Below the pieces are notes generated by a model. It saw nothing but the letters and a program-made list of their open reading frames with translations, was not told the origin of the DNA and did not search any database. 64,000 nt of DNA. It comes from an uncultured candidatus Porisulfidus sp. (lineage in GTDB: Bacteria; Pseudomonadota; Gammaproteobacteria; Poriferisulfidales; Poriferisulfidaceae). Location: the NCBI GenBank assembly GCA_965204575.1, contig OZ241993.1, forward strand, positions 1,440,001 to 1,504,000, written 5' to 3'. This document shows positions 5,568 to 51,666 of the stretch, piece after piece; the first letter of the stretch is position 1; each line of letters begins with the position of its first letter. Position numbers and translations under genes: made by a program.

Positions 5568-6712
5568 CCTTTCAGTTTAGCAGGGCAACAGGCGGCGAGC
5601 GCTTCGCTGAACTGCTCGATTTGCTCGCGTGTGTGGCGGGCCGACAAGGTGATGCGCAGCCGGGAAGTGCCTTCAGGCACGGTGGGAGGGCGGATGGCGC
5701 AGACGGCGAAATCCTGTTCCGATAGGGAGCGGCTGGCCGCGAGCGCGGATTCCGGGTCATTCAGGATCAGGGGTTGGATGGCGGTACGCGATGGCTGCAA
5801 TGGCAATTCGTGTTGCTCCGCACATTGAAGGAAGTATTCAATGTTGTCGCGTAAGCGTGCCCGGTGCTCCGGTTCGTTAATCAGCAGTTGCAGGGCTTGA
5901 TCCGCGGCCGCCGCGAGTGGCGGGGCCAGTGCGGTGCTGTAGCCATAACTGCGGGCGTACTGGAGGAGATGCTCGATCAGGTCGGCGGGTCCGGCGACGA
6001 AACCGCCTTGGGCGCCCAGCGCCTTGCCCAAGGTTCCCACTAGCAGTGGAACTTCTACTTGCGAAAGCCTGGTCTCTTCGAGTAACCCGCCTCCGTGGGC
6101 CCCCAGCACGCCAATGCCGTGGGCGTCGTCGCATAGCAGCAAAGCATCATGCGCGCGAGCGGCGGCGGCCAACTCGGTCACCGGCGCGGTATCGCCGTCC
6201 ATGCTGAATACGCCGTCGGTCAAAATCAGCTGGGCCTGGTGTTCCTGCAGCAGCCGGGCCGCGTCGGCGGCGTCGGCATGTCGATAACGCAGGCACCGGG
6301 CGCGTGACAGGCGAGCGGCGTCCAGCAGCGAGGCGTGGTTCAGGCGATCTTCGACAAGAGTGTCGCCGCGCTCGGCCAGCGCCTGCACGGTTCCGAGGTT
6401 GGTGAGATAGCCGGCGCTGAATACCAACGCCCGGTCGCGCCCGGTAAAGGCGGCGAGGCGTTCCTCCAGCAACTGGTGGATCTCGGTGTAGCCGGTGATC
6501 AGCGGCGAGGCGCCCGCGCCCGCACCGTAGCGCTTGGCCGCAGACGCCATTGCCTCGCAAACCCGGGGATCGCGACTCAGCCCAAGGTAATCGTTGTCGC
6601 ACCAGATTGATTGGGGGCGGCCGTCCAGGGAGACGCTATCGGCATCGGCTGCCCCGCGCAGGATTCGCTGCCGCCGCAGAATCGCCGGGCGCGGGCGGCG
6701 CCAGTCCTTCAT
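5564..6712 (-). CDS. bioF: 8-amino-7-oxononanoate synthase
   Basis: NDYLGL, NHASL, DGVFSMDGD, DDAHG, TLGKA, IRPPTVP. Confidence 0.95.
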   Translation of the reverse strand: MKDWRRPRPAILRRQRILRGAADADSVSLDGRPQSIWCDNDYLGLSRDPRVCEAMASAAKRYGAGAGASPLITGYTEIHQLLEERLAAFTGRDRALVFSAGYLTNLGTVQALAERGDTLVEDRLNHASLLDAARLSRARCLRYRHADAADAARLLQEHQAQLILTDGVFSMDGDTAPVTELAAAARAHDALLLCDDAHGIGVLGAHGGGLLEETRLSQVEVPLLVGTLGKALGAQGGFVAGPADLIEHLLQYARSYGYSTALAPPLAAAADQALQLLINEPEHRARLRDNIEYFLQCAEQHELPLQPSRTAIQPLILNDPESALAASRSLSEQDFAVCAIRPPTVPEGTSRLRITLSARHTREQIEQFSEALAACCPAKLKG

Positions 6713-13161: not shown

Positions 13162-13258
13162 AGATACGCAAACCATCCGGCTCGGCGTGCGGAGCCTATA
13201 CCAAGAATTAGGAGGCTCTTCGAGGTTTCGTGTGGAATCCGTGCTAGAGTAAATCATC

Positions 13259-14665
13259 ATGCACCGAGCCTCCCGCTATCGTCTGTATCCGAACCAGACG
13301 CAGGAGCGGCAGTTCGCGCAGTTGTGCGGGGCCGGGCGGTTCGTCCACAACGAGTTGCTGGCCGACCAGATTCGGGAATACAAGCGTTTCGAGGCCGGCG
13401 AGAGAGACAGGCCGGGGGTTTCGCAGTTTGATTTTGGCCCTCGGTTCACGCGGCTGAGGGCGAAGGAAGGCAACGAGTGGTTGCGGGAACTGTCGTTTCC
13501 CATTGTCCGCAGTTCGGGCGCATTTCCCCTAGCGTCTGCATTCGCGCATTTCTCCCGGCGGATTCGGGAAGGCAAGTGCGGCAAGCAGGCCGGGTTTCCC
13601 CGTTTCAAGGTCAAGGGCGTCAGCCGGGAGTCGTTCACGATCCCATGCGACGTAAAGGTGAAGAAAAAGCGGTTTTGGGTGCCGAAGGTGGGTTGGATCC
13701 GGATGAACCGTAAGGCGCAGTCGCGCACGCGCGGGGCCGACCCCTGGGACGGCGGCGAGGCCAAGGTCGCGGTGGTGTACCGGGAGCTGGACAAGTGGTA
13801 CATATCGGTGTTGTGGGAGGTGGAAGACCCGGACTGGCGCTGGCACGGCGGGGTCTGCGGCATCGATCGCAACTCGGAGAACCTAGCGGGCGCTTGGTGC
13901 GGAGGGCGGAAGCTCATCGAGATTCCGTACGAGCGGATCGGGAAGTACGAGGCGCGGGCCCGGCACTACCAGTGGCGGGCGAGCCACCGGGAGCGGACCG
14001 AACTGAAGGATGCCGACGGGGTGCCAGTGCGAACGAAGTCCGGCCGACCGATCAAGGTGCCCTCGAACCGGCGCCGGCGGCTGCAGTTGCGCGCGGCGAA
14101 GGCGAAGCGCAAGGCGGCGGAGATCCGCAAGGACTTCAGCCATCAGTCCTCGGCGGACCTGGCGCGGAACTTCCAGCACATCGTGCTGGAGGATCTGGAC
14201 GTGCAGGCGATGCGGCGCTCGGCGCGGGGGGCGAAGGAAAAGCCCGGGAAAAACGTCAAGGCGAAGTCCGCGCTGAACCGGAAGATGGCGCAGTCCTCCT
14301 GCATGGGAATGGTGGATCGTTTTCTGAAGTACAAGGCAACGGACCTGATTCGGGTGCCGGCGCGGAACACCAGCCGGGCGTGCGCGGAATGCGGACACGT
14401 GGAGGCGGACAACCGAAAGGAGCAGGCGCACTTCAAGTGCCAGGCCTGCGGACACACGGACCATGCGGACATCAATGCCGCACGAAACATCCTGGACCTG
14501 GGATTGAACAGGCTCCTGACCGGAGGCGCTCCGGTGACGGGACGGGGAGGGGACAACGAAGCGGAGGCATTCTTCTATGAATGCCTAGTGGAGACCGCCG
14601 ATGATCCGTCAACGATGCAGTGGAACTACCGGGGCTCGCCCCCCGACTTCCACACAAAATCGTGA
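13259..14665 (+). CDS. tnpB: RNA-guided endonuclease TnpB family protein
   Basis: N-terminal YRLYPN..Q HTH, GFPRFK, RuvC-I GIDRN, RuvC-II VLEDL, zinc finger CAECG/CQACG, RuvC-III ADINAARNI. Confidence 0.95.
   Translation: MHRASRYRLYPNQTQERQFAQLCGAGRFVHNELLADQIREYKRFEAGERDRPGVSQFDFGPRFTRLRAKEGNEWLRELSFPIVRSSGAFPLASAFAHFSRRIREGKCGKQAGFPRFKVKGVSRESFTIPCDVKVKKKRFWVPKVGWIRMNRKAQSRTRGADPWDGGEAKVAVVYRELDKWYISVLWEVEDPDWRWHGGVCGIDRNSENLAGAWCGGRKLIEIPYERIGKYEARARHYQWRASHRERTELKDADGVPVRTKSGRPIKVPSNRRRRLQLRAAKAKRKAAEIRKDFSHQSSADLARNFQHIVLEDLDVQAMRRSARGAKEKPGKNVKAKSALNRKMAQSSCMGMVDRFLKYKATDLIRVPARNTSRACAECGHVEADNRKEQAHFKCQACGHTDHADINAARNILDLGLNRLLTGGAPVTGRGGDNEAEAFFYECLVETADDPSTMQWNYRGSPPDFHTKS
14516..14632 (+). 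ncRNA. Putative omegaRNA (scaffold 14516-14612 plus guide) overlapping the tnpB 3' end
   Basis: 97-nt block shared with 29571-29667 and 39682-39778; hairpins ACCGGAG/CTCCGGT and AGGCATTC/GAATGCCT; ends in TCAA; true 5' and 3' ends not determinable. Confidence 0.7.
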
Positions 14666-14787
14666 AGCGCCAATTAGGTATAATGCGTCGGCACCCAATT
14701 GGCTATAATGCGCCATCGAGATTTTAGGGATATTCGCGGGGAGCAGATGAGCAAAATATCCGTCTCAAACTTTCGACAAGGCTGGAA

Positions 14788-27876: not shown

Positions 27877-28234
27877 TGGTGGAGGTGGCGGGAATCGAAC
27901 CCGCGTCCGGCAGTTCCTCCTCTTCGGCCCTACATGCTTAGCACCGTCTTTTGTCTCGCGATCAACACCCGACGGACAGGGCCCGATGATCACCAGCCTG
28001 CATGTTGACTTTAACCTTTCGGCTCCAGACAGACCGAACGGCGATCTTGTGTAGTCGACATCCATATCGGGGTCCACAAGCATCTCCCGAAAGGATGACT
28101 AGCCGGGATTAAGCGGCTAGTGCGTAGTTGTCGTCGTTGGCAACTAATTTTTTCGCAACCGTTTTTTACGAGGTCGTTGCCGCCTCGGCATGCGCCTTGG
28201 ATTTAGTAACCGCCGTCGAAGCCAGGTCACCCCC
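27877..28234 (-). ncRNA. ssrA: tmRNA
   Basis: 5' GGGGGTG pairs with 3' CACCTCC-ACCA (G3-U); T-arm GGTTCGATTCC; tag reading frame ANDDNYALAA* at 28141-28109. Confidence 0.96.
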
Positions 28235-28313
28235 AAGTCATCTGGAACCATTATACGAGATAATAGGGGGGCTTCGAGGTTTTGTGTGGAAAGTCGTGAT
28301 AGAGTACACGATC

Positions 28314-29720
28314 ATGCACCGAGCCTCCCGCTACCGTCTGTATCCGAACCAGGCGCAGGAGCGGCAGTTCACGCGGCTGTGCGGAGCCGGGCGGTTCGTC
28401 TACAACGAACTGCTGGCCAACCAGATCCGGGAATACAAGCGTTTCGAGGCCGGCGAGAGGGAAAGACCGGGGGTTTCGCAGTTTGATTTTGGCCCTCGGT
28501 TCACGCGGCTGAGAACGAAGGAAGGCCACGAGTGGTTGCGGGAACTGTCGTTTCCCATTGCCCGCAGTTCGGGCGCGTTTCCCCTAGCATCTGCGTTCGC
28601 GCATTTCTCCCGGCGGATTCGGGAAGGCAAGTGCGGCAAACAGGCCGGATTCCCCCGTTTTAAGGTCAAGGGCGTCAGCCGGGAGTCATTTACGATCCCG
28701 TACAACGTGAAGGTGAAGAAAAAGCGGCTTTGGGTGCCGAAGGTCGGCTGGATTCGGATGAACCGCAAGGCGCAATCGCGCACGCGGGGGGCGGACCCCT
28801 GGGACGGCGGCGAGGCCAAGGTTGCGGTGGTGTACCGGGAACTGGACAAGTGGTACGTGTCGGTGCTGTGGGAGGTGGAAGATCCGGACTGGCGCTGGCA
28901 CGGTGGGGTCTGCGGGATTGACCGCAACTCGGAGAACATCGCGGGAGCCTGGAGCGGCGGGCGGAGGCTGATCGAGATTCCGTACAAGCGGATCGGGAAG
29001 TACGAGGCGCGGGCGCGGCACTACCAGTGGCGGGCGAGCCGCCGGGAACGAATCGAACTGAAGGACTCTGACGGGGAGCCGGTGCGCACGAAGTCTGGGC
29101 GGGTGGTCAAGATAGCCTCGAACCGGCGCCGACGGTTGCAGTTGCGCGCGGCGAAGGCGAAGCGCAAGGCGGCGGAAATCCGCAGGGACTTCAGCCATCA
29201 GGCCTCGGCGGACCTGGCTCGGAACTTCCAGCACATCGTGCTGGAGGACCTGGACGTGCAGGCGATGCGGCGCTCGGCGCGGGGGACGAGGGAGAAGCCC
29301 GGAAAAAACGTCAAGGCGAAGTCCGCGCTGAACCGGAAGATGGCGCAGTCCTCCTGCATGGGGATGGTGGACCGTTTCCTTCAGTACAAGGCAGCGGACC
29401 TGATCCGGGTGCCGGCGCGGAACACCAGCCGGGCGTGCGCGGAATGCGGGCACGTGGAGGCGGACAACCGGAAGGAGCAGGCGCACTTCAAGTGCCAAGC
29501 CTGCGGACACACGGACAATGCGGACATCAACGCCACACGAAACATCCTGGACCTGGGATTGAACAGGCTCCTGGCCGGAGGCGCTCCGGTGACGGGACGG
29601 GGAGGGGACAACGAAGCGGGGGCATTCTTCTATGAGTGTCTAGTGGACACCGCCGATGATCCGTCAACGATGCAGTGGAACTACCGGGGCTCGCCCCCTG
29701 ATTTCCACACAAATTCGTGA
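28314..29720 (+). CDS. tnpB: RNA-guided endonuclease TnpB family protein (copy 2)
   Basis: Same motifs as copy 1; about 37 aa differences over 468 by manual count; start at MHRASRY. Confidence 0.95.
   Translation: MHRASRYRLYPNQAQERQFTRLCGAGRFVYNELLANQIREYKRFEAGERERPGVSQFDFGPRFTRLRTKEGHEWLRELSFPIARSSGAFPLASAFAHFSRRIREGKCGKQAGFPRFKVKGVSRESFTIPYNVKVKKKRLWVPKVGWIRMNRKAQSRTRGADPWDGGEAKVAVVYRELDKWYVSVLWEVEDPDWRWHGGVCGIDRNSENIAGAWSGGRRLIEIPYKRIGKYEARARHYQWRASRRERIELKDSDGEPVRTKSGRVVKIASNRRRRLQLRAAKAKRKAAEIRRDFSHQASADLARNFQHIVLEDLDVQAMRRSARGTREKPGKNVKAKSALNRKMAQSSCMGMVDRFLQYKAADLIRVPARNTSRACAECGHVEADNRKEQAHFKCQACGHTDNADINATRNILDLGLNRLLAGGAPVTGRGGDNEAGAFFYECLVDTADDPSTMQWNYRGSPPDFHTNS
29571..29687 (+). 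ncRNA. Putative omegaRNA (scaffold 29571-29667 plus guide), copy 2
   Basis: Homologous to 14516-14612; stem changes become G-U pairs; ends TCAA followed by the same guide. Confidence 0.7.
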
Positions 29721-29786
29721 AGCGCCATAATAGGCATGGAGTTCGCCTGCCTATCCGTACGAACCGATCCTCCGGCCGTCATTTTC

Positions 29787-38627: not shown

Positions 38628-39563
38628 ATGGCCAAGCACCTGCGCGCCTATTACGATCCTCCTTGGCGTTTCACCTCGCGGCAATTCCTGTATGCCTGCC
38701 TGTTGGATCTGCAGGCGCTGAAACCGGGCAACGTCGGGCTGCATGGGGAAGGGCACGGGAAAACATGTCAGGACTTCCGACAGAGCGCTCAGGCGTCAGC
38801 CGAACTGATTACTCGACCGGACTGGAGTTTAGGCCGGCAGATACGCGAAGCAGCCCGGGCTAGCTGGGGCGTGGCGGGCTGCAATACCAATCTCGGAGTC
38901 CTGCTGCTGACAGCACCACTGGTTTCCGCTTATTACCGGGAGGGTCCTCCGGGCCTGGAGCAGCGCGTGGAGGCGGTCCTGGCGGAAACCACGGTCAATG
39001 ACGCGCGAGATGTATACCGAGCCATTCAACTGATGCAGCCGGCGGGTTTGGGGCGATCACCGCAAGCCGATATCCGCGAGCGGCCGAAGATCACCCTGCG
39101 GGAGGCCATGGCGCTGGCTGCCGAGCGAGACCAAGTCGCGGCACAGTACCGAGACGGGTTTCCGATCGTCTTTGCCGAAGCCCGGCCGCAGTGGGAATCG
39201 CTTTGCCTCCAGTGGGGTGATGCGCGGTGGGCGACGGCCGGCGTATTCCTGACTCTTCTCGGGCGCTATCCGGACTCTCACATTGCTCGCGTACACGGCG
39301 AAGAGGCTGCAAGGTCAGTTAGTGGTACGGTTAAAAAGTTAGCCGATGAATTTTGCGGGGCTGAAACTCCAGATACTCTTCGGCCCAGGCTCCTGGAACT
39401 GGATGCTTCTTGGAAGAGCACCGGTCTCAGCCCGGGAACCACGGCGGACTTGACCCTAGCGGGGGTTCTGGCCGCTCGGCTCGACGGGTGGAGTGACGAC
39501 AGGGACACGGAGGCCCTGTCACAGGGAGATGATTCCCGAAACCCATCGGGTGAGTCTGCGTGA
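38628..39563 (+). CDS. CitG-like triphosphoribosyl-dephospho-CoA synthase family (Orf7-like)
   Basis: KPGNV, NTNLG, DSHIAR, PGTTADL. Confidence 0.85.
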   Translation: MAKHLRAYYDPPWRFTSRQFLYACLLDLQALKPGNVGLHGEGHGKTCQDFRQSAQASAELITRPDWSLGRQIREAARASWGVAGCNTNLGVLLLTAPLVSAYYREGPPGLEQRVEAVLAETTVNDARDVYRAIQLMQPAGLGRSPQADIRERPKITLREAMALAAERDQVAAQYRDGFPIVFAEARPQWESLCLQWGDARWATAGVFLTLLGRYPDSHIARVHGEEAARSVSGTVKKLADEFCGAETPDTLRPRLLELDASWKSTGLSPGTTADLTLAGVLAARLDGWSDDRDTEALSQGDDSRNPSGESA

Positions 39564-39681
39564 TTTGACGGATTCGTTGTATGCAAACCGGCGTAAGGTT
39601 CCATTAAATCAAAGAGCAAAGCCAACCGGGTTTTGACTATGATATGATTTGGGCGTCCGTGAGTGGGGGACGGTACTCATT

Positions 39682-39798
39682 CTGACCGGAGGCGCTCCGG
39701 TGACAGGACGGGGAGGGGACAACGAAACGGGGCCTTTTCGGGTGAGAAGGCTAGTGGATACCGCCGATGATCCGTCAATTATGCTCTGATACCGGAAA
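39682..39798 (+). ncRNA. Stand-alone omegaRNA-like locus (scaffold 39682-39778, distinct guide from 39779)
   Basis: 97-nt homology to both tnpB 3' ends with no tnpB gene attached; covarying hairpin; upstream TGnTATGAT; downstream GAAA-loop hairpin. Confidence 0.72.
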
Positions 39799-39855
39799 CG
39801 GTATTTATTGTGTACTAAGCGCCCAAACAAAAACAAAAACTGGAGTAAATCAATA

Positions 39856-40380
39856 ATGGCAATCGATAAAGTTCTCGTTGGAGAGGCTTTGGTCAACGAC
39901 AACGACCCTTCTGGGACAATGGCTGAAATCGCTCACATCGATCTTCTCATTGGCCCGCGCGGCTCTGCCGTGGAGACGGCTTTCTGCAACGGTCTGGTCA
40001 ACAACAAGGACGGGTTCACGACACTGCTCGCTGTAGTGGCGCCGAACCTGCCGTGTAAGCCGGACACCATGATGTACAACAAGGTCACGATCAAGGGCGC
40101 CAAACAGGCTGTCCAGATGTTCGGGCCCGCCCAGAAGGCTGTCGCCATGGCTGTTGCGGATTCAGTTGAGGCCGGGGTTCTCCCGAAAGACGAAAGCGGC
40201 AACCTGTATGTCTGTGTTGGCGTGTTCATCCACTGGGAGGCCGACAGCGATGCGGCGATCTACGAAAACAACTACAAGGCCACTAAGCAGGCTATCGCCA
40301 ATGCCGTGGGTGGAGTTCCCACTGTGGACGACATGCTTTCCCAGAAGGACAGCACCGACCATCCGTTCCAAGGCTTCTAG
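39856..40380 (+). CDS. fae: Formaldehyde-activating enzyme
   Basis: [40 protein letters not shown]; GGAG RBS. Confidence 0.95.
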
Positions 40381-50274: not shown

Positions 50275-51666
50275 TCAGATCCGGCGTGCCAACTCGGCTG
50301 CGGCACCGATGTAGTCACGTGGCGTCATTGCCGACAGTCGTTGCTTGGCTTCGTCCGGCAAATCCAATCCCGAAATGAACTCGGCTAGGTTCTCCCGGGT
50401 GATGTGCTGTCCCCGGGTGAATGCCTTGAGCTGTTCGTAGGGGTCCGGCAGGCCGTAACGTTTCATTACGGTCTGGACGGCTTCCGCCAAAACCTCGGGA
50501 CAGGCTTCCAGATCATCATCCAGCCGCTCCGCATCCACATCCAACTTGCCCAGGCCGCGCTCAAGCGCGGCGTATGCATTGGTGCTGCATGCCAAGGTCG
50601 CACCCATATTCCGCAATACGGTGGAATCGCTCAGGTCGCGCTGCAGGCGTGAAATTGGCAGTTTGTTCGCATAGTAGTCCAGTTCGGCGCAAGCCAACCC
50701 CAAGTTGCCCTCCGCATTCTCGAAGTCGATCGGATTGACCTTGTGCGGCATGGTGGAGGAGCCGACTTCACCGATTTTGGTCTTCTGCTGGAAGTAGCCC
50801 AGAGAAATGTACTGCCAGACGTCCCGCGCGAAATCGGTCAGCAGGTTGTTGATCCGAATCAGGCAGTGGAAGAACTCTGCAAACTGGTCGTAGGGTTCGA
50901 TTTGCGTCGTGTAGGAATTCGAATCCAACCCGAGCGAATCCAGGACTTTTTTGGAAAGCTCGGTCCAGTCGACTTCCGGGTAGGCAGCGAGATGTGCGTT
51001 GTAGTTGCCGACGGCGCCGTTCATCTTGCCCAGAAAACGCATGCTACGAAGAGGTTCCAGTTGGCGTCGGAGCCGGGCAACCGTCACCGCGAGTTCCTTG
51101 CCGACGGTGGTTGGCGAGGCGGGCTGGCCGTGTGTGCGCGACAACATCGGGATCTCCGCATATTCATGAGCCATGCTCTGAATGTTTTGTTCAAGGCGTT
51201 CCAGTGCCGGCAACACGACCTCCGTGCGGGCGCGGTCAAGCATCAGGGCGTAGGCGGGATGGTTGGCATCCCACGAAGTGCAGGCAAAGTGAATGAATCC
51301 TTCCAGCGTGCCCAGATCCGGATCTTCCTTGAGCTTTTCGCGTAAGAAATACTCCAAGGCCTTGACATCGTGATTGGTTTCTTTTTCGATGTCCTTGACC
51401 TGCTGAGCCTGATCAGGAGAGAACCCCGAAACCAGCGACTGCAGGCGCTCTTTGGCCTCATCGGATAAAGGTGGAACTTCTGGAATCCCCGGATGATCCG
51501 ACAAGGCCAAAAGCCATGCGGCCTCCACCTCAAGACGGTGGTGAATCAGGCCGAATTCTGAGAATAACTGGCGCAGCCGCGTGCTTGTGGTCTTGTAGTA
51601 GCGCCCATCAACCGGCGACAGGGCGGTCAAAGGCGAAAGTTCCAAACGCGCGGCTCTCAAGAACAA
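50275..51666 (-). CDS. purB: Adenylosuccinate lyase
   Basis: LTALSPVDGRY, TNHDVKA, SRTHGQ, GSSTMPHKVNP; exact start uncertain. Confidence 0.96.
   Translation of the reverse strand: MFLRAARLELSPLTALSPVDGRYYKTTSTRLRQLFSEFGLIHHRLEVEAAWLLALSDHPGIPEVPPLSDEAKERLQSLVSGFSPDQAQQVKDIEKETNHDVKALEYFLREKLKEDPDLGTLEGFIHFACTSWDANHPAYALMLDRARTEVVLPALERLEQNIQSMAHEYAEIPMLSRTHGQPASPTTVGKELAVTVARLRRQLEPLRSMRFLGKMNGAVGNYNAHLAAYPEVDWTELSKKVLDSLGLDSNSYTTQIEPYDQFAEFFHCLIRINNLLTDFARDVWQYISLGYFQQKTKIGEVGSSTMPHKVNPIDFENAEGNLGLACAELDYYANKLPISRLQRDLSDSTVLRNMGATLACSTNAYAALERGLGKLDVDAERLDDDLEACPEVLAEAVQTVMKRYGLPDPYEQLKAFTRGQHITRENLAEFISGLDLPDEAKQRLSAMTPRDYIGAAAELARRI

Follow-up and report, generated by a model that had tools for sequence, protein, structure and literature searches.

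A mini-element of 235 nt lies on the forward strand at positions 39589..39823 of the 64,000-nucleotide stretch of an uncultured candidatus Porisulfidus genome analysed here (the window, G000:C1:1440001-1504000; positions are those of the window unless contig coordinates are given). This genome, designated G000, is a single contig of 1.82 Mb with 60% G+C. The mini-element is composed of a truncated left end, a promoter, the scaffold of an omegaRNA and a right terminal inverted repeat, and it is followed by fae, the gene of a formaldehyde-activating enzyme. It is best explained, with a probability that we put at about 0.7, as a tnpB-less, omegaRNA-bearing miniature inverted-repeat transposable element (MITE), similar to the palindrome-associated transposable elements (PATEs), which derives from a TnpB family with ISL3-type ends and is moved in trans by an ISL3-family DDE transposase.

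This explanation is carried by the homology of the scaffold to tnpB 3' ends, the element boundaries, the empty sites found in sister species, the mobility of the sister copies, the match of terminal repeats and target duplications to those of an ISL3 insertion sequence (IS), a conservation that differs from region to region, and covariation in the predicted RNA. If it is true, the mini-element provides a compact natural case (235 nt with a promoter, a scaffold and one transposon end) of a TnpB system whose RNA component spreads and stays conserved in the absence of the protein component, within a transposon family (ISL3, DDE) that is unnamed in the TnpB literature searched. Two questions would become testable, namely whether omegaRNAs can compete for TnpB in trans and how a transposon-adjacent motif (TAM) is found when target choice by the transposase does not provide one. 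For the host, a promoter and a long structured leader would have been placed before a central gene of formaldehyde metabolism.

Scaffold homology, element boundaries and empty sites

The core of the mini-element is related to the 3' ends of tnpB genes. In a BLAST search performed with 39600-39860, positions 39682-39784 are 85.6% identical to 14516-14618 and 84.6% identical to 29571-29673, the 3' ends of the two tnpB copies of the window, whose open reading frames (13259-14665 and 28128-29720) each contain three Pfam TnpB domains. The same search returned four further full tnpB copies of the genome (80-85%) and two shorter tnpB-less matches. A first-pass annotation of this DNA, which had described 39682-39778 as a homologue of the tnpB 3' block, is confirmed on this point, the 3' ends of six tnpB genes being about 85% identical to the block over 103 nt. 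When scored with a covariance model of 99 positions (R1), 39680-39778 reaches 109.5 bits, to be compared with 115-118 bits for the six tnpB-linked copies. Nine strong R1 matches are present in the G000 genome: these six, the mini-element, and two units of another kind, called p-type, which are described in the last section. Two weak matches (E about 0.03-0.04; 226574-226678 and 266655-266759 of the contig) fall at the 3' ends of more distant tnpB genes and suggest that a related scaffold exists at a tnpB class of 41% identity.

Across the genus, R1 yields 43 matches in nine of the 16 genomes. Classification by tblastn on the flanking sequences gives 27 tnpB-linked scaffolds (full or partial), ten tnpB-less ones and six that lie at contig ends and are unclassed. 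The tnpB-less scaffolds are four copies of the mini-element, one of a second form (mini2) and five p-type units; scanning with the covariance model has thus revealed further orphan scaffolds, both in G000 (the two p-type units) and in the genus (ten out of 43). A full tnpB of the same family (family A) is present in all four genomes that carry a mini-element.

The absence of any tnpB remnant upstream of the scaffold, as initially described, holds true, with the exception of a short tail that overlaps the scaffold itself: the coding trace detected by tblastn is restricted to residues 412-454. This relic is the sole reading frame in the 235 nt, with no protein gene between the element ends, and in two of the four sister copies (G002 and G012) stop codons interrupt it. 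The conservation of the mini-element is therefore not protein-coding.

The right boundary could be defined from the full tnpB elements. Their six copies are homologous over 59 nt beyond the TCAA that closes the scaffold core, and the right-end alignment shows that all of them end at ...GAAGCGCC and then diverge, the terminal motif where divergence begins being ...GTGAAGCGCC. The mini-element has the same right end, AAGCGCC at 39817-39823, and this motif or a close variant terminates the element in every lineage.

The insertion itself is delineated by comparison with sister species. The fae locus was taken from all 16 genus genomes, each of which has fae; seven loci in fae orientation were aligned, the other eight, in the opposite orientation, lying outside the alignment. 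An empty site is found in seven out of seven aligned sister species (G012, G005, G008, G013, G004, G014 and G006). In these empty sites the stop codon of the upstream CitG-like gene is separated from the fae start by about 55 nt, and G000 has 240 extra bases. The empty-site alignment contains a single copy of the 5-bp direct repeat CAAAC whose left copy lies at 39584..39588 in G000, and the four closest empty sites read ...TGCAAAC directly followed by AAAAAC.... The preceding left flank (39576..39583), at the position where a TAM would lie, reads GTTGTATG in G000 and GTTGTTTG in most of the empty-site sister species. The same junction is seen in RNA contigs from three metatranscriptomes of three studies, which belong to relatives a few percent diverged: 39583 is joined to 39824, with 240 nt skipped and 5 ambiguous letters. 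In run X21, labelled as the same organism, the insertion is present without any difference as far as 39768, where the contig breaks. Sponge and marine are the habitat labels of the runs, in which the relatives make up small shares.

The mini unit is also found in G002, G005 and G012, where the copies are 86-90% identical over 190-230 nt and lie on contigs without fae, in unrelated flanks. All four copies end in ...TAAG(C/T)GCC and diverge immediately after. Duplications of 8 bp are observed at the copies of G002 (0 mismatches) and G012 (1 mismatch), beside inverted repeats of the form GG(C/T)GCTTATA.... The G000 copy is 9-10 nt shorter at its left side, where the outer left repeat is missing (a gap of 10 columns in the alignment), and it is flanked only by the 5-bp CAAAC. 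The simplest account of this left junction would be a small deletion that took away 3 nt of the duplication together with the terminus of the repeat. Since its left inverted repeat is truncated, the G000 copy is probably immobile. The presence of the unit at different loci, with duplications, in other species indicates that it is mobile and recently inserted, and not fixed by the host.

These data change the picture drawn from the window alone. The unit had been considered as host-retained, and its conservation at the fae junction in relatives was looked at: the locus is not conserved, the insertion being absent from the seven relatives that could be aligned, and the unit is mobile elsewhere. 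It had also been described as lacking full terminal inverted repeats and target duplications; the parent elements and the sister mini copies have both, and the G000 copy keeps the right repeat, a truncated left one and the CAAAC repeat. The 8-bp inverted repeat TTTGGGCG/CGCCCAAA that was said to bracket the unit does exist at 39648-55/39820-27. However, half of it is flank, it is unconserved in the sister copies, and, by our own estimate, chance alone would produce about 0.3 repeats of this kind in 190 nt.

As regards a wider distribution, an exact 20-mer of the mini tail is found, among species-representative genomes, only in the three sister metagenome-assembled genomes (labelled Gammaproteobacteria or uncultured Chromatiales), and it has no match in the JGI metagenomes. 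A gapped two-motif pattern retrieved 55 metagenome loci, over half of which are chance matches devoid of the scaffold hairpin S1.

Parent elements with ISL3-type ends

The full tnpB elements are bounded by inverted repeats, the left end being the inverted complement of the right end over about 24 nt. The tnpB stop codon lies inside the right terminal inverted repeat, and the 3' end of the gene is 6 nt from the transposon end. Two of the six elements are in the window, both on the forward strand. Element A1 (13214..14671), a possible donor of TnpB in trans, has inverted repeats at both ends and the target duplication AATTAGG(A/T); element A2 (28268..29726) has the target duplication ATAATAGG. 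The other four are found at G000:C1 105878-107336, 163657-165115, about 410079-411536 (converted from the reverse strand) and 1158419-1159874. AT-rich target duplications of 8 bp flank most tnpB copies. A duplication (at most one mismatch) followed by the left repeat was detected for 17 of the 30 real right ends, one spurious row without inverted repeat having been dropped, and a stricter duplication filter retained 15 out of 31.

Terminal repeats beginning with GG and AT-rich duplications of 8 bp are the features by which ISL3-family elements are usually described. The G000 genome contains three identical copies of a 1349-bp IS encoding an ISL3-family DDE transposase (PF01610, 218 bits), which have 8-bp duplications as well; one such copy lies at G000 236195-237543. 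Counted on the printed sequences, the inverted repeats of the tnpB elements agree with those of this IS at 22 of 24 and 21 of 24 positions. The tnpB elements therefore appear as non-autonomous cargo versions of an ISL3-type transposon. A transposase of the Y1 TnpA type (PF01797) was not found in the G000 genome, which is 98.75% complete, the control genomes being positive. The alternative of an IS200/IS605 element, in which TCAA would be the right-end cleavage site next to a subterminal palindrome, was ruled out by the inverted repeats, the duplications and the lack of Y1 TnpA. The annotation of the tnpB genes is corrected accordingly: their products have Pfam domains of the IS605-type OrfB/TnpB, yet the elements are not IS200/IS605 elements. 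No full tnpB element with a mini-type tail was found in the 16 genus genomes or among the metagenome loci.

The protein encoded by the full elements has 468 residues and three Pfam TnpB domains, and internal stops are absent in five of the six copies. The nuclease region of the A1 protein aligns to solved TnpB-like chains, with acidic residues, the putative catalytic motifs, in the expected stretches of the translation. As judged from their translations, the TnpBs of this genome look like intact nucleases. In all, the 1.8 Mb hold about 16 tnpB-like genes, which fall into at least four classes of divergence.

In the full elements, an extended -10 is found just 9 nt before the tnpB start codon (13241-13261), which may leave the tnpB mRNA with little or no leader. 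Two decayed remnants of this family were also encountered: a solo left end, to which the first 24 nt of tnpB are still attached (G000:C1:1295700-1295760), and a solo fragment of right-end tail (1563883-1563921). A short metagenome contig (locus L116) has two scaffold cores of the B subfamily, at 504-571 and 1012-1079, spaced 508 nt from each other; they may correspond to a tnpB-less copy beside a full one.

Retained modules, RNA structure and position of the guide

Conservation is unevenly distributed along the mini-element, as deduced from mean pairwise identities among the four copies (G000, G002, G005 and G012). The outer left-end segment (39589..39633), which in G000 is without the outermost left repeat present in the three sister copies, has a mean identity of 0.56 only. 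This value rises to 0.87 in the promoter region (39634-39654), 0.95 in the 5' stem region of the predicted RNA (39655..39679), 0.91 in the omegaRNA scaffold core ending with TCAA (39680..39778) and 0.86 in the scaffold tail and right end (39779..39823), all of them on the forward strand. Within the core lie hairpin S1 (39686-39700) and a stem-loop with covariation at about 39731-39755, the latter enclosed by a long-range stem; the tail contains the hairpin ATACCG-GAAA-CGGTAT (39789-39804).

The extended -10 TGATATGAT (39640..39648, forward strand) that was noticed in the first-pass annotation is well supported, TGnTATGAT being conserved in four out of four copies. Its free base differs in G012, with the motif kept. 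The RNA would start about 7 nt after this box, at the 5' stem, which is also present in the mini2 of G007. In mini2, TGCTATAGT is located a few bases before the shared 5' stem, and in the full tnpB elements TGCTAGAGT is located at the left end, just before the tnpB start codon. The occurrence of the same -10 in both indicates that this promoter is the element's own tnpB promoter, moved beside the scaffold by deletion of the gene. The mini2 form is found at G007:C17:40871-40995 (L054). A third tnpB-less form, on the metagenome contig L108 (about 6330-6500), has a -10-like box directly before hairpin S1 and adjoins an oppositely oriented, truncated tnpB left end.

The hairpin 39789-39804 and the T-rich bases that follow had been viewed as a second expression signal. 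The hairpin is in place, but it does not make a convincing terminator: it has seven pairs, of which three are G-C, the sister copies have not retained the T-rich run, and the terminator scan returned one site, to be compared with 0.9 expected in shuffles. Transcripts from the promoter would then probably continue into fae. The description as a stand-alone, tnpB-less omegaRNA-like unit with its own signals is thus acceptable for the extended -10 promoter, with the provision that TnpB is needed from elsewhere, and not for the terminator. In three RNA runs, 39596-39706 is uncovered; these runs hold relatives with the empty site, and the lack of cover therefore says nothing on expression in G000.

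A consensus structure was calculated with RNAalifold on 18 scaffolds, five tnpB-less and 13 tnpB-linked, the latter from two subfamilies. It comprises 32 pairs, eight of which are compensatory (both sides changed), mostly in the stem-loop at about 39731-39755, the sequence of which differs between lineages. Cells of the alignment are paired in 97% of cases, as compared to 93% in column shuffles and 32-49% with slid partners, and the covariation score was reached by 0 out of 500 shuffles; these values have to be read with the caution that the sequences are related and that one alignment served both to derive the structure and to assess it, to the structure's advantage. A further contact may involve the S1 loop GGCGCT (39691-39696), which is complementary to the terminal AGCGCC. 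Among 36 elements, this pair is standard in 31, a G-U variant in two, mismatched at its terminus in two, and doubly changed in one (GGCACT/AGTGCC in the mini copy of G005); L108 has GGTACT/AGTGCC.

It was initially proposed that a new guide sequence follows TCAA. This does not agree with the alignments: TTATGCTCTGATACC, the 15-mer at 39779-39793 that was called the guide, is kept in all four sister copies, and the full copies are homologous over 59 nt past TCAA. Being conserved at different loci, TTATGCTCTGATACC is not a locus-specific guide. It overlaps the tail hairpin, which is found 10-17 nt after TCAA in every lineage, with a differing sequence, and which would be odd inside a guide. If the scaffold reaches the element end instead, the guide would be the flank, for example 39824..39843 on the forward strand, a candidate set by the element boundary which starts with the right CAAAC and reaches the fae ribosome-binding site.

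A flank signal of the kind expected from a TAM was indeed observed. The base preceding the left duplication (-1) is a G in 17 out of 17 tnpB and mini elements, and in 15 out of 15 with the stricter filter (G000, loci L002-L049). A T is found at -2 in ten of the 17, C is the commonest base at -3, and no base is conserved directly after the right duplication. At the equivalent end of the ISL3-only insertions, G is found in one case out of four (A, A, G, C), a contrast with a hypergeometric p of about 0.003 on this small control. Such an asymmetric flank signal, specific of the nuclease-bearing elements, is what a TAM would leave, and G (often TG) is thus a candidate TAM. On these grounds, together with the tail hairpin and the complementarity of the S1 loop to the element terminus, a scaffold extending to the end of the inverted repeat, with the duplication and the flank as a guide, would be preferred over a guide starting after TCAA by roughly 3:1. 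In either case a TnpB encoded at another place is required.

For neither of the candidate guides was a second target seen in the genome. With at most two mismatches, the 15-mer matches itself only; phages and plasmids were not searched for this sequence, which is too short to inform. The flank 20-mer gives itself only at 0-3 mismatches, plus two low-complexity sites with four mismatches, and the flank 16-mer gives three A-rich sites with two mismatches, none of them preceded by TG. Where the site is filled, ...GCGCC and not G/TG stands before the flank, which means that the copy would not target itself; only the empty allele carried by sister species would match.

Transcription, loading onto TnpB, position of the guide and any effect on fae are predictions, and they could fit together as follows. 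The mini-element keeps the extended -10 (39640-39648), the whole scaffold (about 39655-39823) and the right inverted repeat. From its promoter, an RNA would be made that contains the scaffold up to the element boundary and then the flank (39824 onward, toward fae) as a guide, as in full TnpB elements. Because the mini-element has no nuclease of its own, this RNA must use the TnpB of full copies, and would be loaded by that of the six full copies of the genome. The mini-element could in this way share the service rendered by TnpB, the empty site flanked by a TAM being cleaved or marked, and the insertion kept or copied. The G000 copy, inserted in the lineage of this species, would then have lost about 10 nt of left repeat and probably 3 nt of duplication, and is probably stuck, with its promoter now facing fae.

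Competing explanations, known systems and neighbouring features

Several observations weigh against a MITE moved by an ISL3 transposase with a flank-derived guide. Regarding mobility, the G005 mini copy has no clean duplication, PF01610 is detected in five of the 16 genus genomes and was not found in G002 and G005 (draft assemblies), the mini inverted repeat shares only its first 7-8 nt (GGCGCTT...) with the ISL3 IS of G000, and the mini tail differs from that of family A. Regarding the RNA, the consensus -35/-10 scan revealed no two-hexamer promoter, the promoter being called on the conserved extended -10; folded alone, the sequence does not do better than its shuffles (z = -1.05); and the pseudoknot between S1 and the 3' end is supported by one or two events. 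The sole hint at the RNA level is a 155-nt contig of an RNA library (depth 4.1), from the mini-type copy of a relative, which runs through the element end and 40 nt into a different flank; it is compatible with read-through and proves nothing, DNA carry-over being possible. Regarding the guide, the TAM-like signal amounts to one invariant base plus a partial TG, with a control of four IS insertions, three of them from one IS; conservation across families drops sharply after TCAA; and p-type units look guide-like just after TCAA.

Among the other explanations, the one that survives best is compatible with this MITE reading. An outward promoter without an effective terminator would drive or boost fae, and the scaffold would serve as a long structured 5' leader. 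In favour of this, 33 nt separate the element from fae downstream, both lie on the same strand and the promoter faces the gene; the T-rich tract is unconserved and the terminator scan is at chance level; in addition, the spacer is about 55 nt in sister species, and single RNA contigs of relatives span both genes, which is not a proof of a single transcript. However, the insertion is not common to the relatives, there is no sign of long-term selection, and the promoter is equally well explained as the element's own. A lasting role for the element as a promoter donor looks unlikely.

It is less probable still that the mini-element is a functionless fossil, a decaying remnant whose RNA is neither made nor used, with a conservation that would reflect a recent common origin. 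The truncated left repeat, the duplication shortened to 5 bp, the presence of the unit at this locus in one species only (and in the related run X21) and the other relics in the genome, near 1295708 (solo left end) and 1563883 (tail fragment), are in line with decay. But conservation is uneven, being highest on the promoter and scaffold and not on the ends needed for transposition; the free base of the -10 changes and the motif stays; derivatives with promoter and scaffold arose repeatedly (mini2, L108); and the core scores nearly as high as tnpB-linked copies. The possibility of a randomly decaying end of a deleted element, which the first-pass annotation had itself envisaged, was thus examined, and what was found is a conserved promoter and scaffold, and recurrent tnpB-less derivatives.

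The host-retained trans-acting omegaRNA proposed initially, with a scaffold ending at TCAA and a fixed guide that would redirect the TnpBs to a second target in a defensive or regulatory role, could account for the unit having its own promoter, for a 15-mer conserved in the copies of four species as a selected guide would be, for the fall of cross-family conservation right after TCAA and for the 18-21-nt copy of upstream sequence that p-type units carry at this place, but it is very improbable in view of the empty sites and duplication-flanked mobility, of a 15-mer overlapping a hairpin that is kept with a different sequence in every lineage, of full elements homologous through the tail to the inverted repeat, of the absence of any other 15-mer match in the genome (at most two mismatches), and of a TAM-like asymmetry beside the target duplication that fits a flank-derived guide.

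The MITE reading can be compared with several known systems. In the part of their study that deals with PATEs, Meers et al. (PMC10055086) indicate that omegaRNAs are frequently encoded by IS200/IS605 PATEs, a remark made for Geobacillus stearothermophilus, and that TnpB would then have to be supplied in trans. The mini-element similarly looks like a gene-less miniature of a TnpB transposon, with ends and an omegaRNA, which relies on TnpB and transposase located elsewhere. It differs from PATEs, as they are presented there, by its ISL3-type repeats and 8-bp duplications, in place of the IS200/IS605 subterminal palindromes, the lack of duplication and the Y1 TnpA, and by its own extended -10 directly before the scaffold. 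Since the PATE features (IS200/IS605 ends, no duplication, Y1 TnpA) are not those of this family, it better fits an ISL3-type MITE with an RNA cargo. With the omegaRNAs of IS200/IS605 and IS607 elements (the OMEGA systems), it has in common a scaffold overlapping the tnpB 3' end and the right end of the element, a covarying structure and a guide presumed to come from the flank; here, in contrast, the scaffold is found without tnpB, the right end doubles as the inverted repeat of a DDE transposon, and the guide would begin with the 8-bp duplication.

TnpBs associated with DDE transposases and inverted terminal repeats, some of them solo TnpBs between ends of this type, have been reported by Altae-Tran et al. 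2023 (PMC10691335). The elements described in that article resemble ours in having TnpB inside symmetrical inverted repeats, a 3' end close to the transposon end and mobilisation in trans through near-identical ends. The main text of the article names IS630 only, with 0 occurrences of 'ISL3', and describes no tnpB-less, omegaRNA-only derivatives. More generally, the literature search, made among open-access papers, disclosed no description of an omegaRNA-only MITE in a DDE frame, and no link between ISL3 and TnpB is apparent from the titles and abstract starts of open-access papers naming both.

The mini-element shares with ISL3-derived MITEs a short non-coding sequence and insertion polymorphism between close relatives, and the likeness would extend to repeats starting with GG and 8-bp AT-rich duplications: of the four copies, those of G002 and G012 have such duplications, and against the genome's own ISL3 IS the parent elements match at 21-22 of 24 repeat positions, the mini lineage over its first 7-8 nt. 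It differs from them by the promoter and guide-RNA scaffold that it carries, and by a conservation that is highest on this cargo and not on the ends. Domesticated TnpB homologues of the TldR type with natural guide RNAs provide another point of comparison (Wiegand et al., PMC10705468). From what that article outlines, a TnpB-family guide RNA with a host function was close to the idea of the first-pass annotation; the mini-element differs in being mobile, without a fixed host locus or a conserved host target, and in facing genome TnpBs that look nuclease-intact.

A broader view may tentatively be put forward, which we regard as rather doubtful at present. Minis reduced to a guide RNA would be parasites of a parasite, loading the TnpB of full elements with a flank guide and favouring their own retention, inside a DDE (ISL3) cut or copy cycle. 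As the TAM is not supplied by the target site of the transposase, this would explain why only insertions preceded by G (often TG) are seen. About a quarter of the genus scaffolds (ten out of 43), in at least three independent forms, would then be hitchhikers, with the p-type units perhaps acting as TnpB decoys or self-directed regulators.

The mini-element lies between two genes of the forward strand. Its 5' neighbour (38628..39563) belongs to the CitG-like triphosphoribosyl-dephospho-CoA synthase family (Pfam PF01874, E 7e-62), and fae (39856..40380; Pfam PF08714, E 1e-62) starts 33 nt downstream of the right end. According to the Pfam scan, further neighbours are an ATP-grasp gene upstream and molybdopterin genes downstream. 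The gene of the transfer-messenger RNA (tmRNA) is on the minus strand at 27877-28234 (Rfam, 228 bits), and tnpB element A2 is inserted 34 nt from its 5' end (28260-28268). This tmRNA is the only match of the window at the Rfam gathering score, no family having hit the orphan scaffold; with permissive E-values, the best scores are 10-17 bits for cut-offs of 40-47, which is nothing meaningful.

The p-type units, which carry the same omegaRNA core, are mobile, measure about 280 nt and have short inverted repeats of their own (AAGGGAACTAC... / ...GTAAATCCCTT). They are found at G000:C1:775893-776170 and 1028755-1029030, in G012:C4 (L052, 1604-1888), in G007:C30 (L051) and at G009:C1:1388913 (L053). 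One of these insertions, in G012, corresponds to an empty site in G000 (50871-50876). Each unit contains a TTGACA promoter-like stretch and the core, in which S1 is changed; there is also a hairpin in the tail, and a G+C hairpin that, with the T-run behind it, resembles a terminator. A stretch of 18-21 nt including TTGACA is present both upstream of the scaffold and just after TCAA. At G000:C1:466571-466717 (minus strand), a sister of the p-type units is devoid of the promoter-scaffold module and has this stretch once, as if it were the 'empty' form or the product of a deletion between the repeats. With their own terminator, p-type units would have no flank-derived guide, and they are a better fit than the mini-element to a stand-alone omegaRNA gene with its own expression signals.

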